Shown: positions 500 to 20,000, counted from the stretch's first letter. The stretch: 20,000 bases of DNA from an uncultured virus (IMG/VR IMGVR_UViG_3300029906_000007) (IMGVR_UViG_3300029906_000007), one strand, 5' to 3'. Numbers and translations: made by a program. The notes: a model not told the origin generated them from the sequence alone.

Positions 500-1714
500 T
501 TATATAAAATAAACTTCTTTTATATGATAAGGAACTCTATTTACCCCCGACCTCTCTCCATAAGAAATAAAAACATATCTTCCAATATATTCTTCTTTAT
601 TATAAAGAACTTCTTTCTGAGAATATTGAGGAATACTTAATCGAGTTTCAAAAGTTTCATTATTAATATCATTACGACAACGAATAATAGGTAAATCACG
701 AGTCTTTTCTGGATAAATATCAATAACTTCAAATTTACCATCAGTATGATCTTTATATTTTAGCATTACCTTAACAGAACGATTTCCATAATTATATTCA
801 GCATTAGGATTACGCATTATAAGACCTTCAAAACCTTTATCAATAAATTCATTACGATATTTGAGAGCAGTTTCATCATTAGTAATATCATAATAAGGAA
901 GAATAAGAAATTTCTCTTTATTATTAAGATGTTCATTACGATTATTAAATCTAATAATATGACTTTTAAATTTATCAAATAGAAAGTCAATACGCTTAGA
1001 TTGAATCATACTATCAATAGCAATATCATAACACCAGAATTGTAAAAGTTTATGTTCAGGACAAGTAGGATCTTTAACAAAGTGATTAATCATATTTACT
1101 TTATAACCGGGAAGATAAATTTCACCATCAAGAGCGATATTATAATTAATAAGATAATTAATAACATCGGTATCTATAACTTCAATAAGATAATCTTTTA
1201 AATCAGTTAATCCGTTCCATACTTCTCCTTCACGACTTTGTATACGAATAGTATAAGGATGAAACATATCTCCATCATTATTAAACGTAATACAACAACG
1301 AAGTCCATTAATCTTCCATTGACCAATAAATACATCAGAATACTTGAAACAATTTATAGTATAAAGTTTAGCAAACATTGGAAGAATATTGTTATTATTA
1401 GTATTAGTTTTATTAGTAGGAAGATATGTATCAAGATAGCGAATGAACTCTTCATTGCTCCATTCCTCTACGGGGAAACTACACGTATCATCACGAACTT
1501 CATCATATTCAAGATAACCTTCTTTACGTTTCTGATTAATACGACTTTTAACTTCAGTCTTAACATTAGACTTACTTATCAAAATTGTATCAGAAGTATA
1601 TTTCTTTCCTAATATACCATATTTAATAGTAATATAATTAGGACTATCAACAGTAAGTTCCCAACCGTAAGGTTCACCTTTATTATTTCTTTTATATAAC
1701 TTAATCGTTTCCAT
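500..1714 (-). CDS. lig: ATP-dependent DNA ligase
   Basis: Motifs QWKINGLR (KxxGxR), LDGEIY, WCYDI, GFEGLIMR, MLKYK; ATG at 1714 (METIK) preferred over 1735. Confidence 0.93.
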   Translation of the reverse strand: METIKLYKRNNKGEPYGWELTVDSPNYITIKYGILGKKYTSDTILISKSNVKTEVKSRINQKRKEGYLEYDEVRDDTCSFPVEEWSNEEFIRYLDTYLPTNKTNTNNNNILPMFAKLYTINCFKYSDVFIGQWKINGLRCCITFNNDGDMFHPYTIRIQSREGEVWNGLTDLKDYLIEVIDTDVINYLINYNIALDGEIYLPGYKVNMINHFVKDPTCPEHKLLQFWCYDIAIDSMIQSKRIDFLFDKFKSHIIRFNNRNEHLNNKEKFLILPYYDITNDETALKYRNEFIDKGFEGLIMRNPNAEYNYGNRSVKVMLKYKDHTDGKFEVIDIYPEKTRDLPIIRCRNDINNETFETRLSIPQYSQKEVLYNKEEYIGRYVFISYGERSGVNRVPYHIKEVYFI

Positions 1715-2234
1715 CAGCTTTTTTACTAAAATCAAACTTCATATTAGCAAATTTAGCTTTAAGTTCTTTAGCTTTCCTATCACTAATAGTTTCTTTCTTT
1801 GGCTTTTGAATAGGAATTTCAATATCTTTACCAGTAATAAGATCTTTAGTTTTAATAGACTTAGCAATTCTTTTACCATTAGAAGCCTTTTCATAACCAC
1901 TACCAATAGGTTTAGGTTTGCCATTTTTATTTCCGCCATATTTAATAACTCCATGAATTTTTTCAAACTCAAGATTAAGTCTATGACGTTCTTCTAATTT
2001 ATGTCTATATAAAGCCGCTTCTTCGTTATTAATTCTATTATTATCTATAGCATCATTAAGAACATAGCTAAATGCTTCTTGAAGAAATTCATAACGAGAA
2101 TTAATTGTCTGCATAGGTCTTCCAATAGGAAGAACAACAGTACAATCCATTTCTTTAAGAATAAAATCAAGAGTTTGTTGATATGATTTGCCAATCATCC
2201 AACTTTCTATAAGACGAATTTCAGATATAGTCAT
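1701..2234 (-). CDS. Hypothetical protein (177 aa, basic C-terminus)
   Basis: Abuts both neighbours; no recognised motif. Confidence 0.8.
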   Translation of the reverse strand: MTISEIRLIESWMIGKSYQQTLDFILKEMDCTVVLPIGRPMQTINSRYEFLQEAFSYVLNDAIDNNRINNEEAALYRHKLEERHRLNLEFEKIHGVIKYGGNKNGKPKPIGSGYEKASNGKRIAKSIKTKDLITGKDIEIPIQKPKKETISDRKAKELKAKFANMKFDFSKKADGND

Positions 2235-2663
2235 TTAGTGAACTTTAATTTTATATACAATTATTCTTTTAGGTTTACCTAACATAACATAATTATATTT
2301 CCACCAAAGAACAGGATCAAATGTATGATAATACTTAGGAATATTTTCATACTCAACTTCGCCGGTTTCATAATTAAAATTAGAATGAATATTACTACCG
2401 TCAGGATTAACAAGATTAAATTTTTTGATATAATTGATATCTTCTTGATTATCGGGATTAACTTCGCCGTAACAATATATAAGTTCACGACTAATGCTTT
2501 TATCTCCTTCAATAGTATCTATATGAGTATGTTCATAATGATCAAGATCTTTTTCTTGTCTTTCGGTAATTTCTTGCATATAAACATTCCAACTTCCAGC
2601 AACAGTTTTAACTCTATTAATAAGGCATCTCTGTTTGATACCCAATAGTTTCAATTTCTTCAT
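2235..2663 (-). CDS. Hypothetical protein (142 aa)
   Basis: Tightly packed in the operon; overlaps the primase 3' end. Confidence 0.8.
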   Translation of the reverse strand: MKKLKLLGIKQRCLINRVKTVAGSWNVYMQEITERQEKDLDHYEHTHIDTIEGDKSISRELIYCYGEVNPDNQEDINYIKKFNLVNPDGSNIHSNFNYETGEVEYENIPKYYHTFDPVLWWKYNYVMLGKPKRIIVYKIKVH

Positions 2664-3795
2664 CTCTGTTATTAAATAGTTTAATTGTTTCGTTAATATA
2701 ATGAACTATAGTATTAGGACTGTATAAACTTCTTAATTCAGCAAAATCTTTAGCTCCATATTCATGAGGTATAATACAAGGAGGAATATTCCATTTATCA
2801 CGATATTTAATGGCACACATATAACCAGTACGATCATTATCAAATAGACTTATAATTTTACCATTTCTTGCACATTTAGAACGAATAAAATTATATTCTG
2901 TTTGAGTAAGTTCATGAGTTTCATGAGGAATATTAATAACTCCGACTCGGTAACATTCGTGATTGTCACCCCGTAGGGGATAGTCATAACAGAACTGTTC
3001 GAGAGCTAATCTATCTTTAGTAGATTTAGTTATAATAATAAAATTATAATCAAATCCATCAAGATTAAGAACACCTTCTATATGATTAGAATTAGTTATA
3101 AATCTAACTTCATTATGACTTCTCTTAGGGAAATAAAGTTTCCAATTATATATACCTTTATTATCTTGACCTAATAAATAAGCATAACATGGGTCATGAG
3201 GATTATAATAATATTTAGGTTCAGGATTAATCTTTCTATTAATATAATATTGGTCAACAGCATAAACATAATGTGTATTAAGAAAATTAAGATTAATTCC
3301 AAATTGTTTCCAATAGTTTTTATCATCATTATTCCAACCTCTTGGAACTATTTCTATAATATTCTTTCTACTTTTAATATTAACAAGTCCTTTTTTAATA
3401 TCAGCATTAATTCTTTCATCTTTTTCTTTGCCATAAATATAATTACGAAATGTATAAGCACAATGTTTAAGACAAAATATAAAATCATGTTTATTTGTAA
3501 CATCAATATCTCTTTCAACTACAGCAGATAGAACATATGCTATAATATCCCATACATCTCCCCAAAAATAACCAGCAAAATCTTTAGCTTTAAGTTGACC
3601 ACGATTATTAAAAGCAAAACCAAAACTAGGATGATTATCTTCACGAAGAGGACTACTTATTGTTTTACCAGTTTCAATACACCAATCAATTGTTTCAATA
3701 GGTATATCAAGATATGTTGCTGCAATAAGTTGTTGAGATACTTTAGAAAGTATCATATCTTTAGTTAGTTTACTATTAGCTACACCTCTGCCCAT
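2617..3795 (-). CDS. dnaG: DnaG-like (TOPRIM) DNA primase
   Basis: SPLREDNHPSF...KDF...GD (zinc-finger-like region without Cys), TOPRIM FDNDRTG and KDFAE; ATG at 3795 chosen because 3821-3852 is a terminator hairpin. Confidence 0.85.
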   Translation of the reverse strand: MGRGVANSKLTKDMILSKVSQQLIAATYLDIPIETIDWCIETGKTISSPLREDNHPSFGFAFNNRGQLKAKDFAGYFWGDVWDIIAYVLSAVVERDIDVTNKHDFIFCLKHCAYTFRNYIYGKEKDERINADIKKGLVNIKSRKNIIEIVPRGWNNDDKNYWKQFGINLNFLNTHYVYAVDQYYINRKINPEPKYYYNPHDPCYAYLLGQDNKGIYNWKLYFPKRSHNEVRFITNSNHIEGVLNLDGFDYNFIIITKSTKDRLALEQFCYDYPLRGDNHECYRVGVINIPHETHELTQTEYNFIRSKCARNGKIISLFDNDRTGYMCAIKYRDKWNIPPCIIPHEYGAKDFAELRSLYSPNTIVHYINETIKLFNNRDEEIETIGYQTEMPY

Positions 3796-19001: not shown

Positions 19002-19189
19002 AACATTAGATACGTACTCCTTCAGTACGGACTGTATTATTATTAATAGCAGGAGGACACACAGTCATAGCCACTGCAATATTATTATCTCAAGAATTAT
19101 ATTGTAGCTATGAATGAGGAACTAGAATTTTAGTACCGGGGTAGTTCGATCACGAGTTGGAGCACCGGGGGTTCATCTACATAGGTCTC

Positions 19190-19680
19190 CCCTCTCACTA
19201 ATATCCATATTATTTATATTACCTCTATCCTCATCTTCATTATTTATATTACATTCTCCTTCACATTTACAAATACACCTAATATTCTCTATATTATCTT
19301 CTCCTTTATTTCCATTCTTATCTTTATCTTAACTTTTACCTTTATTATGGTCCCCTCTTTCACTAATACACCCAATATCCAATATATTCTCTTTATCATT
19401 AATATCCTCAATACTTCCTTTATCATTAATATCCTCATTATCTTCTTTATCTTCTCTATTTATAACATCCTTAATACCTTTAATATTTCTAATATTCCCA
19501 ATATTTTCTTTATCTCCAATACTTCCAATACTTCCAATACCTCCTTTATCAGTAACATCTTTAACATCATCAATATTTCTAATACTTCTTCTATCATCTA
19601 TATCTTTTATATTCTCTATATCTTCATTTTTTATATTTAGCCTTAATTCTAGCCTTAGTTCCAGCTTTAATTCCAGATTC
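19190..19680. repeat. Low-complexity, almost G-free (+ strand) tract of degenerate 9/12/27-bp repeats
   Basis: CTTTATCATTAATATCCTCA at 19391 and 19418; AATACTTCC tandem at about 19518-19544; 12-mer x3 at 19638-19673. Confidence 0.8.
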
Positions 19681-20000
19681 TTTTATATTATATCACATAA
19701 TGCCATATAGAACATTAATATTACATTCAGTTATATCGCTAGGACATTCAGTGCTTTCACCCCCGTAAAGGAATGCATCATGCAGACCTACTCCAGCTCT
19801 ATCTTGAACATCATGTTCAGCATCAGCATGAGCAGGATCAGTCCTATCTCCATCTTCTACAGGGTGACAAGCATGAATCTCCATATTATTAATATTAATT
19901 ATATTATTAGTATTAGCATTAATTATATTATTATATTTATATATTATATTTATATTATAACTGTTTTAATTAAATAAATCAAAAAATGCATCCGCGTTGT

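Follow-up and report, generated by a model that had tools for sequence, protein, structure and literature searches.

The window, a 20,000-nt stretch of DNA from a chicken-gut relative of crAssphage, contains nine copies of a 13-nt core, CCCYGTARRRGAW, whose orientation runs -+-+-+-+-. All nine copies, with the spellings given in an earlier note on this DNA, are confirmed, and none arises by chance (mean 0.00, maximum 0 in 200 dinucleotide-preserving shuffles of the window). Five of the nine lie in genes, two are intergenic (13544 and 16200), and two (19761 and 19852) fall in a 63-aa open reading frame (ORF) of doubtful coding status at a divergent gene-block junction. No further copy with up to two mismatches was found in the window, against 3.69 expected by chance. 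Thus, the window set is complete and sharply bounded.

The genic copies lie in four genes. The first (1463..1485, minus strand; core 1463-1475 plus 10 nt of upstream flank) is in sense in an ATP-dependent DNA ligase gene, encoding S-F-P-V-E-E-W at residue 87. Both residue and orientation are conserved in three distant crAssphage-type genomes (G003, G005, and p-crAssphage), with PVE(E/D) kept beside indels. Copy 2 (2959..2981, plus strand; core 2969-2981) is antisense in a primase-like gene (PHROG 12622), which reads Y-P-L-R-G-D at residue 289; orthologous antisense copies are found at residues ~290-296 in the same three genomes. Copy 3 (7961..7983, minus strand; core 7961-7973) is in sense in the gene for an SNF2-like ATPase, a homologue of crAssphage gp17, encoding C-F-P-V-E-E-W at residue 157. 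These ATPases are only 32-40% identical, yet P158-V-E-E161 is invariant within a barely conserved stretch, and the codon CCC is used in all four sequences.

Two copies lie in the gene for a family B DNA polymerase (PolB). Copy 4 (9485..9507, plus strand; core 9495-9507) is antisense, and the gene reads S-S-T-G-E-Q-T at residue 407. S-T-G is invariant in nine of nine PolBs within a hypervariable, indel-rich loop; the DNA core CCCGT(A/G)GAG is kept in all nine, using the codons ACG and GGG. Copy 5 (10575..10597, minus strand; core 10575-10587) is in sense, encodes L-P-V-K-E at residue 47, and occurs only in the window's clade. At this site, the PolBs of other clades read x-[TNS]-V-x-E, which indicates that the copy arose by substitution rather than insertion. 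It divides an otherwise 8.2-kb same-strand gap, the largest. The peptides that the earlier note had read at these five sites are all correct (FPVEE at ligase residue 87 and ATPase residue 157, LPVKE at PolB residue 47, SSTGE at PolB residue 407, and PLRGD at residue 289 of the primase-like protein).

The remaining copies are outside well-supported genes. Copy 6 (13534..13556, plus strand; core 13544-13556) sits in the gap from ORF 13161-13487 to ORF 13572-13793, is antisense to the gene block, and has positional counterparts with orientation kept in p-crAssphage (6022-) and G003 (37331-). Copy 7 (16200..16222, minus strand; core 16200-16212) lies between ORFs 15960-16166 and 16237-16830, in sense to the gene block; its counterpart in p-crAssphage (3335+) is also intergenic. 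Copies 8 (19751..19773, plus strand; core 19761-19773) and 9 (19852..19874, minus strand; core 19852-19864) are the left and right members of a convergent pair, 91 bp apart, at the divergent junction. Equivalent pairs occur in L017, L019, and p-crAssphage (95745+/95865-). Pyrimidine-rich tandem repeats (19390-19676) lie to one side of the pair and AT-rich TATTAA repeats (19883-19958) to the other. The pair region (19592-19900) has an 89% match to a relative that is 96% identical to the window (G002), and the adjacent stretch (17263-19592) is without a full-length match in that genome.

The 13-mer is only the core of an asymmetric word of ~20-23 nt. Upstream of the core is a flank, G..GTTY, with conserved positions at -8 (G), -4 (G), and -3 to -1 (TTY). 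The word is laid out as a specific upstream part, followed by GTA and then by a stretch that varies by purines only; its variable positions change by transitions only. We found no description of this word in the literature.

We detected the word genome-wide in crAssphage-type phages. The 96% identical relative has 33 copies (17+/16-), 30 of them exact against 0 in controls. This is the enrichment in the rest of the genome that the earlier note had proposed as a check, and it supports its claim of a genome-wide, DNA-level signal that overrides coding sequence. The three distant genomes have 29-32 copies each and share the core CCCGTAGAGG, the flanks around which differ by clade. Across the four genomes, a relaxed pattern recovers 29-33 copies per genome compared with 0-1 in reversed-sequence controls, and the top over-represented 9-mers come from the word in all four. 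The word thus occupies ~30 fixed places per ~95-kb genome, ~15 per strand, whatever the gene direction. It occurs in both orientations throughout, including in coding sequence, where it has clear reading-frame preferences.

Residue and orientation are conserved across three clades for four of the five genic window copies, in proteins that are 32-57% identical. The chicken-gut phage shares these codon positions with the crAssphage of the human gut. The residues encoded by the word form islands of invariance within variable loops. Furthermore, the word's G/C-ending codons are otherwise almost absent: in PolB, ACG and GGG are the only two of 225 invariant degenerate columns with a GC3 of at least 0.75 (mean GC3, 0.11). 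This synonymous-site result bears out the earlier note's view that selection acts on the DNA. We show that the word is under purifying selection in a lineage of crAssphage-type phages. Non-coding spots are preferred, and elsewhere the word is placed in tolerant gene loops and in tolerated reading frames.

Host genomes lack this signal. Among 121 Bacteroidales genomes, we found 355 matches compared with 328 in controls, a density of 0.79 per Mb that equals the control level; the phage density is 309 per Mb. Five Bacteroides/Phocaeicola genomes likewise had no enrichment (15 matches versus 20 in controls). We therefore reject a host signal. The absence of the word from host genomes indicates that the word works for the phage, and whatever reads it is probably encoded by the phage.

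The two strands carry near-equal numbers of copies in the four genomes (17+/16-, 16/16, 15/14, and 18/13), with both orientations along the whole genome and no orientation skew seen along any axis. Relative to genes, the copies in G002 are 16 sense, 14 antisense, and 3 intergenic, in agreement with the earlier note that the word is not simply the promoter of the genes. The mean same-strand gap is 5.4-7.5 kb, or about one word every 6 kb per strand. We find that this spacing is even: the coefficient of variation (CV) of per-strand gaps is 0.31-0.57 in seven of eight strand sets, compared with ~0.92 for random placement (P <= 0.012), and 0.70 (not significant) in the eighth. Six of the eight sets have no same-strand gap below 2 kb. 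Opposite-strand copies, in contrast, are often close, with 8 pairs less than 130 bp apart against 2.7 expected (P = 0.0065). These pairs are spaced by 27-120 bp, and six of the eight are convergent.

The strict alternation of orientation described in the earlier note is present in the window and does not extend genome-wide. In G002, orientation alternates in 26 of 33 cases, compared with a mean of 24.4 when each strand's positions are kept and one strand is rotated against the other (P = 0.38). Alternation is likewise not above this strand-rotation null in the three distant genomes. It arises because each strand keeps its own evenly spaced set, and not from inverted pairing of neighbors. Thus, alternation is a by-product of two interleaved strand sets. 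One orientation of the word cannot substitute for the other. Symmetric, parS-like, or orientation-blind binding fits poorly, since opposite-strand copies are tolerated at 27-120 bp while same-strand copies mostly stay at least 2 kb apart.

Several familiar identities were considered and rejected, namely a hairpin, an Rfam RNA, a terminator, and a mobile insert. No single-strand DNA hairpin forms at the word (mean fold z ~0). The window has no Rfam 15 match at the gathering score on either strand, and none of 11 terminator-like sites coincides with the word. Sigma-70 promoter-like matches are generic and AT-rich (162 versus 133 in shuffles). Beside the word, we found no AT-rich unwinding region and no other flanking feature. 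Mobile palindromes of the REP/BIME, MITE, or RPE-like type are also rejected: there is no inserted sequence, the DNA fold z is ~0, and positions are fixed across clades.

The word looks like a previously undescribed signal for a phage DNA-handling machine. Going by sequence, we tentatively propose that it might be a strand-specific start signal for the synthesis of new DNA strands during phage replication, a possibility that we put forward with low confidence. The reader would be a phage enzyme, either the primase-like protein or an RNA polymerase that works on exposed single-stranded DNA. It would recognize ~17 nt up to ...CCCYGTA and then, moving in the word's direction, begin on RRRGAW a primer made of purines only. 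Even spacing per strand would limit the length of any unprimed single-stranded stretch, and the convergent close pairs found where gene blocks meet would serve an origin by starting both of its strands.

A number of observations are consistent with this proposal. The word has a specific upstream part, a GTA, and a stretch in which only purines vary, a layout that the -17..+6 arrangement of T7-type promoters resembles. The window has a convergent pair at its divergent junction, and in Carjivirus communis, origins were predicted near the start of the forward gene block, where nanopore coverage peaks. For the crAss-like phage phi14:2, the virion RNA polymerase is reported to transcribe single-stranded DNA but hardly any double-stranded DNA, and no recognition motif is known for this enzyme. 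According to a 2023 review, it is unknown how Crassvirales replicate. With six of the eight close pairs convergent, the two products would overlap and leave no gap. The copy that the window's clade gained at PolB residue 47 breaks up the largest same-strand gap.

Other considerations argue against a start signal. Known primases read sites of 3-5 nt, not words of 20 nt, and Okazaki fragments of 5.4-7.5 kb, the mean gap, would be long. If replication began at one fixed bidirectional origin, a single orientation per side would suffice, but both occur everywhere. The word has neither an AT-rich unwinding region nor a single-strand DNA hairpin. In the phi14:2 genome, exact counts of 9-12-mers reveal no sharply over-represented word (the top 9-mer has 10 copies). 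Thus, any link to the phi14:2 RNA polymerase is by analogy only. Finally, even spacing would fit any "coverage" function equally well.

In a bolder form of the start-signal proposal, of which we are less confident still, every strand start, whether by primer or by nick, would be programmed by ~15 words on each strand, a lattice whose codon positions predate the split of the genera. The words of such a lattice may be read on exposed single strands by a primase-like protein or by the single-strand-dependent two-barrel RNA polymerase, which is annotated in crAssphage-type genomes. If the lattice proposal is true, it would explain the replication mechanism of the most abundant virus family of the human gut by a sequence-programmed mode not known in any phage or cell.

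Alternatively, though we consider it unlikely, the word might be a site at which a phage nickase cuts one strand. Such nicks could be carried in virion DNA or could provide 3'-OH starts for strand-displacement synthesis or recombination. The word is long and asymmetric, lacks structure, and is strictly conserved apart from an upstream part that is semi-conserved; published consensus sequences of phage nicks have this style. Strand specificity is intrinsic to nicking, and nicks on opposite strands 27-120 bp apart would still leave a stable duplex. The genome also encodes ligase, RecT-like, and SSB-like proteins that could process nicked or branched DNA. However, the word is balanced between strands, while the nicks of known phages are on one strand only; nicking alone does not require even spacing, and no nickase gene was identified, short of a systematic search for one.

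An equally unlikely explanation is a Chi-like or self-marking signal, in which a direction-sensitive helicase-nuclease or translocase traveling along DNA would be turned off, or altered in its activity, on meeting a correctly oriented word. Phage DNA bearing the word would be spared or recombined, and host DNA without it degraded. The orientations are indeed non-interchangeable, equal in number, and evenly spaced per direction with a bounded largest gap, as predicted if a machine entering anywhere must meet one word before it has traveled a set distance. The word is missing from the host order, its per-direction density is of the same order as that of Chi in E. coli, and the window encodes an SF1 helicase (AAA_30/UvrD_C_2). 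In G003, a genome with direct terminal repeats, the leftmost copy is "-" and the rightmost is "+", although this is a single case with a ~1-in-4 chance of occurring. Against a Chi-like role, known Chi sites are 5-8 nt and read by host RecBCD or AddAB, while the word is ~20 nt with flanks that differ by clade. There is no orientation skew to any axis, and no cognate nuclease was identified.

We regard an architectural or packaging site, the looping, compaction, or partition idea of the earlier note, as improbable. Here, a sequence-specific binder, for example, an IHF-like protein, would act on the genome by folding, anchoring, packaging, or ejecting it. In favor of such a role, the sites occur throughout the genome at regular spacing and are conserved, and an IHF-like gene is annotated in crAss-like phages (phi14:2 g073). 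However, an orientation-blind binder predicts even spacing of all copies, which holds in only two of the four genomes: the all-copy gap CV is 0.64-0.66 (P < 0.01) for G003 and W01 and a non-significant 0.77-0.81 for G002 and G005. For such a binder, close copies on opposite strands (27-120 bp) would be redundant, yet they are enriched. The word is also far stricter than typical architectural sites, and Pfam Bac_DNA_binding was not found in G002, the one genome searched.

An RNA element (a transcript hairpin, processing site, or terminator) is very improbable. A 6-bp stem with G.U pairs, which would allow transition-only variation, can form in the complement, UUCCUCUACGGGGAA, and complement-strand folds are somewhat more stable than shuffles in three of four genomes (mean z -0.96 to -1.33). 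The effect is absent in G005 (z -0.18), however, and the innermost pair lacks significant covariation (C/G 12, C/A 4, T/A 6, T/G 8). Furthermore, orientation is independent of transcription (16 sense, 14 antisense), no Rfam family matches, and none of the 11 terminator-like sites is at the word. Inverted-repeat pairs of a mobile element or recombinase (MITE, REP-like ends, or invertase sites) would account for the strict alternation in the window and for several close inverted pairs, but this is the least credible explanation, as alternation is not above the strand-rotation null, genes run uninterrupted through copies that overlay homologous residues without added sequence, the copy confined to one clade came about by substitution, positions, unlike those of mobile DNA, have held through deep divergence, and inversion between intragenic copies would destroy essential genes.

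The word has partial counterparts among known systems. The uptake sequences of Pasteurellaceae (USS) and Neisseriaceae (DUS) have a strict ~10-12-nt core with a looser flank and are hundreds-fold over-represented. They occur equally in both orientations, are spaced more evenly than random, are often genic with favored reading frames, and form inverted intergenic pairs. Similarly, the word is over-represented and near-equal between strands, with genic frame preferences and close inverted pairs. However, uptake sequences are read on duplex DNA by the bacterium's own uptake machinery, for which orientation should not matter, while the carrier of the word is a lytic-type phage whose Bacteroidales hosts lack it, and its evenness is per strand, with close opposite-strand copies tolerated.

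Chi is likewise orientation-dependent, read by a machine traveling along DNA, present once per several kb per direction, and a mark of "own" DNA. In contrast to the word, an unskewed, phage-clade-specific sequence of ~20 nt that Bacteroidales genomes lack, Chi is a host-owned site of 5-8 nt, enriched in the host chromosome and skewed with replication direction. T7-type promoters share the length (~23 nt), the asymmetry, and a specific upstream part followed by a purine-only stretch, but they lie upstream of genes and point with them, while the word is mostly intragenic and in either sense. Their cognate polymerase is a single-subunit RNA polymerase; the one annotated in crAssphage-type genomes is two-barrel. 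In plasmids and filamentous phages, the ssi and sso signals, which depend on strand and orientation, prime the complementary strand. Like mitochondrial OriL, these signals are folded and number one or a few per replicon, unlike a word with no DNA fold and ~15 copies per strand.

The nick motifs of T5, phiKMV-like, and tf/LUZ24-like phages are also phage-specific, asymmetric, conserved over ~10-20 nt, and scattered, including within genes. A conserved asymmetric motif is present at every word site, as it is for phage nicks. In those phages, one strand is acted on at each site, as would be the case for the word. Their nicks number 4-14, all on one strand; the word, in contrast, is present in ~30 copies, balanced between strands and evenly spaced along each.

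The 13-bp motif of the earlier note belongs to a longer, asymmetric DNA word, of which it forms the 3′ core. We show that this word is cis-acting and strand-specific, is confined to a phage lineage, has even spacing, and is held by strong purifying selection. The core pattern, CCCYGTARRRGAW, has nine matches in the window, agreeing in every place and spelling with the nine copies claimed there. None of 200 dinucleotide-preserving shuffles of the window contained a match (mean 0.00), and allowing up to two mismatches in the window itself added no site, against 3.69 expected by chance. 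The word family therefore has a sharp boundary, with perfect copies and no imperfect ones. Alignment of the copies reveals further conserved positions upstream of the core (G at −8, G at −4, and TTY at −3 to −1), giving a working consensus of about 23 nt, TG.TTGTTY-CCCYGTARRRGAW.

As a whole-genome stand-in for the window we used G002, an IMG/VR contig of 97,161 bp that is 96% identical over window positions 1-17263 and 89% identical over 19592-19900. It carries 30 exact copies, 15 per strand, compared with none for the reversed control pattern, and so the enrichment extends genome-wide, as the earlier note had anticipated. Three more copies are one or two letters off and have the upstream flank in common.

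Four crAssphage-type genomes, assembled from fetched stretches, were compared: G002, the more distant G003 and G005, and p-crAssphage (BK010471). Fragments of the word top an unbiased list of over-represented 9-mers in all four. A relaxed core pattern recovers 33 copies in G002 (leaving out two doubtful GCC-type matches), 32 in G003, 29 in G005, and 31 in p-crAssphage, while reversed-sequence controls give 0 to 1. The core common to all clades is CCCGTAGAGG, and the surrounding spelling is clade-specific: TTGTTY-CCCYGTARRRGAW in G002, GTTC-CCCCGTARAGGAA in G003, TAGCTT-GCCCGTAGAGGGA in G005, and TAGACY-CCCCGT(A/G)GAGGATGGA in p-crAssphage. Because of these clade-specific spellings, the original 13-mer undercounts in other clades (27 copies in G003, 15 in G004, 3 in G006, 14 in p-crAssphage, and none in G005). 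The core is looser in the window's chicken-gut lineage; the window sequence occurs in public runs sampled from chicken gut, manure, compost, and other gut metagenomes. Pooled around 125 copies, base composition is flat beyond about −20 to +30, with no AT-rich or other flanking feature.

The window corresponds to a crAss-like phage replication module in which every gene lies on the minus strand. It encodes an ATP-dependent DNA ligase (500-1735; Pfam), a primase-like protein (2617-3846), an SNF2-like ATPase homologous to crAssphage gp17 (6995-8443), a family-B DNA polymerase (PolB; 8436-10727), and an SF1 helicase (11260-12708). The primase-like protein has PHROG 12622 “DNA primase” as its sole type assignment, and searches against Pfam, NCBIfam, and PDB sequences returned no match. 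PolB has a weak Pfam match and 55.8% identity to the Carjivirus communis polymerase; megablast against phage records returned nothing for it. The window PolB is unbroken. In relatives' loci matching it (L017, L019, and L020), the match spans about 3.3 kb, the gene being split by about 1 kb in some relatives, and in MT774381 (cr3_1) a homing endonuclease is annotated between two polymerase pieces. Among terminator-like hairpins of the window, the strongest is at 3821-3852 (minus strand; 13 pairs including 7 G-C), right where the primase-like ORF begins and immediately downstream of an SSB-like gene (3902-4933).

Four of the five genic window copies occupy the same residue and keep their orientation in G003, G005, and p-crAssphage, within proteins that are only 32 to 57% identical: ligase residue 87, primase-like protein residues ~289-296, SNF2-like residue 157, and PolB residue ~407. 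With the intergenic copies and the junction pair matched by position, eight of the nine window copies have a same-orientation counterpart in p-crAssphage. The PolB S-T-G is unchanged in all nine sequences amid a hypervariable, indel-rich loop, and all nine retain the DNA core. Similarly, the SNF2-like protein keeps P-V-E-E invariant in a stretch with scarcely any other conservation, and an indel-flanked linker of the ligase does the same for P-V-E.

Codon choice gives the same picture. Across 225 invariant degenerate columns of PolB, mean GC3 is 0.11 and reaches at least 0.75 in two only, which are the word's Thr (ACG in six of seven sequences) and Gly (GGG in six of seven). The word's Pro in the SNF2-like protein is CCC in all four sequences. 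The claim that the motif overrides coding sequence is therefore borne out across clades, both by residue-level position and by the retention of rare synonymous codons. The fifth genic copy (PolB residue 47, LPVKE) is found only in the window's clade; it came about by substitution within an existing x-V-x-E segment and involved no insertion.

Reading frames in G002 are restricted. Sense copies are read as C|CCY|GTA|RRR|GAW (P-V-x-E/D) in 12 of 16 cases and as CCC|YGT (P-R/C...) in the other 4; the third sense frame would include a stop. Antisense copies give an S-x-T-G reading in 10 of 14. Of these 30 genic copies, four fall in ORFs that are unlikely to be genes. Copies favour non-coding DNA: within the annotated part of p-crAssphage (its first 50 kb), non-coding sequence makes up 7.4% but contains 6 of 16 copies (P = 0.0007).

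We find that the copies on each strand form an evenly spaced set. Per-strand coefficients of variation (CVs) of the gaps are 0.35 and 0.52 in G002, 0.43 and 0.57 in G003, 0.37 on the G005 minus strand, and 0.31 and 0.43 in p-crAssphage, compared with ~0.92 under random placement (P ≤ 0.012 for seven of the eight strand sets). Evenness is not significant on the G005 plus strand (CV 0.70). The same-strand minimum gap is at least 2 kb in six of the eight sets.

The strict alternation reported by the earlier note is real in the window (-,+,-,+,-,+,-,+,-), but it is secondary. In G002, 26 of 33 neighbour pairs alternate, above label shuffling (P = 0.0014) but not above a null that keeps each strand's positions and turns one strand relative to its partner (mean 24.4, P = 0.38). 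Alternation in G003, G005, and p-crAssphage likewise does not exceed this null. Thus, two strand sets that are each even account for the alternation, and the primary features are strand specificity and per-strand even spacing. Because the two orientations are not interchangeable, the word's reader must be direction- or strand-sensitive. We infer that the word serves a process that treats each strand or direction separately genome-wide and needs a site within a bounded distance.

Copies on opposite strands can be as near as 27 to 120 bp, with 8 such close pairs against 2.7 expected (P = 0.0065). Six of the eight are convergent, and they are sited in non-coding junctions. The window pair (19761+/19852-) lies at the divergent junction between two gene blocks, with tandem repeats on both sides. 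A second pair in G002 (69361+/69432-) lies just beyond the end of an N4-gp49/crAss001_48 family gene, and a p-crAssphage pair (28077+/28173-) has the same place relative to the homologue of that gene. A preprint on Carjivirus communis predicts origins near the start of the forward gene block, where it reports maximal nanopore coverage. The convergent word pair could mark an origin; alternatively, both strand sets could have picked the same cost-free non-coding spot.

Next to the window pair, a plus-strand pyrimidine-rich stretch (19200-19680) carries nested tandem repeats with periods of 27, 9, 36, 24, and 12, and has no ORF of at least 60 aa on the gene strand. Together with AT-rich TATTAA-type repeats at 19883-19958, it flanks a conserved island of ~200 bp that holds the pair and is 89% identical to G002. 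This repeat arrangement looks origin-like or iteron-like. A GC-rich 63-aa ORF (MEIHACHPVEDGD..., 19693-19884, minus strand) covers both copies and is kept open in G002 with a few substitutions; it has no Pfam match and may be a gene or only a side effect of the conservation of the DNA island.

Next to the island, a block of ~2.3 kb (17263-19592, versus G002 94361-96814) lacks a full-length counterpart in G002, which is otherwise 96% identical. It contains only matches of 44 to 117 bp at 70 to 84% identity, while its flanks match at 96% and 89%. The block is a mosaic replacement of small genes adjoining the divergent junction. The word pair is ~170 bp away from the block's right edge, and copy 7 is ~1 kb away from its left edge; one such instance is not evidence of an association.

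A host signal is rejected for Bacteroidales, the likely host order of this chicken-gut phage. Five Bacteroides/Phocaeicola genomes contain 15 word matches versus 20 for controls, and a sample of 121 Bacteroidales genomes (449 Mb) contains 355 versus 328, or 0.79 per Mb compared with 309 per Mb in G002. One of the 121, G057, has 30 matches versus 3 controls, nearly all CCCCGTAGGGGAT and clustered at ~53-bp spacing (contigs C6, C23, C35, C45, C77, C98, C189, and others); these form a family of bacterial repeats, interspersed or tandem (REP-like or CRISPR-like), whose fit to the pattern is by chance. Two further genomes of the sample also exceed controls (G094, 17 versus 4; G066, 10 versus 1).

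Neither a terminator nor a sigma-70 promoter was found at word sites, and both readings are rejected. Sense and antisense copies both lie inside genes, which upholds the earlier view that the motif is not simply the promoter of the genes.

For what the word does, our tentative preference is a start signal for strand synthesis. In the word, GTA separates a specific upstream part from a following stretch that varies only among purines. This layout recalls T7-type promoters, which have a recognition-plus-initiation layout. Convergent pairs would provide overlapping starts for both strands, and the clade-specific gain at PolB residue 47 divides the largest same-strand gap. Against a start signal, known primases use sites of 3 to 5 nt, and either side of any single origin has both orientations. 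The crAss-like Cellulophaga phage phi14:2 also counts against it, as exact 9- to 12-mer counts (NC_021806 1-100000) reveal no word that stands out sharply; the top-ranked 9-mer, CTGAAGCTG, occurs 10 times. Thus, the lattice in this marine phage is either much looser in spelling or absent. Abundant intergenic RNAs are reported for phi14:2. On the side of the start signal, the phi14:2 virion RNA polymerase is reported to prefer single-stranded templates and to have no known recognition motif, and a 2023 review describes the Crassvirales mode of replication as unknown.

A putative site-specific nick at each word is somewhat less probable than a start signal, and we place level with the nick a Chi-like or self-marking signal that a helicase-nuclease would meet while moving along the DNA. 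An architectural or packaging site is unlikely; PF00216, an IHF/HU-like reader candidate, was not found in G002, where a divergent homologue could escape the search. An RNA element is very improbable. Complement-strand RNA folds are mildly better than shuffles in three of four genomes (not in G005), but covariation at the innermost pair of the complement stem, counted over copies, is not convincing, and neither Rfam families nor tRNAs occur at word sites. A conserved hairpin is rejected, as folds of single-strand DNA are no better than those of shuffles in any of the four genomes. Mobile or invertible pairs deserve almost no credence: a mobile insert is rejected because copies overlay homologous residues and keep their positions across clades, and an inverted-pair reading because alternation is not above the strand-rotation null. 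The rest of the probability falls to explanations that have not occurred to us.

CrAssphage and its relatives are the most abundant human-gut viruses. Selection keeps the word at ~30 fixed places, with enough force to set both residues and rare codons in the ligase, primase-like protein, helicase, and polymerase across proteins of only 32 to 57% identity; the word marks a core process that is not known to have been described. Its sites are exact and few, and its role is thus directly testable. The word also offers a compact signature to recognise and orient crAssphage-type contigs, and its clade-specific flanks may act as a lineage marker. For gene finders and dN/dS analyses, word codons are constrained for non-protein reasons.

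Exact 12-mers of the four spellings and their complements returned no phage paper in searchable literature text, which excludes figures and closed supplements, and word searches together with the available text of crAss papers and a review gave no mention of such a word. Among known systems, the nearest in kind are USS/DUS and Chi, as genome-wide oriented words, together with phage nick motifs; where the comparison is testable, the word misses a defining feature of each.
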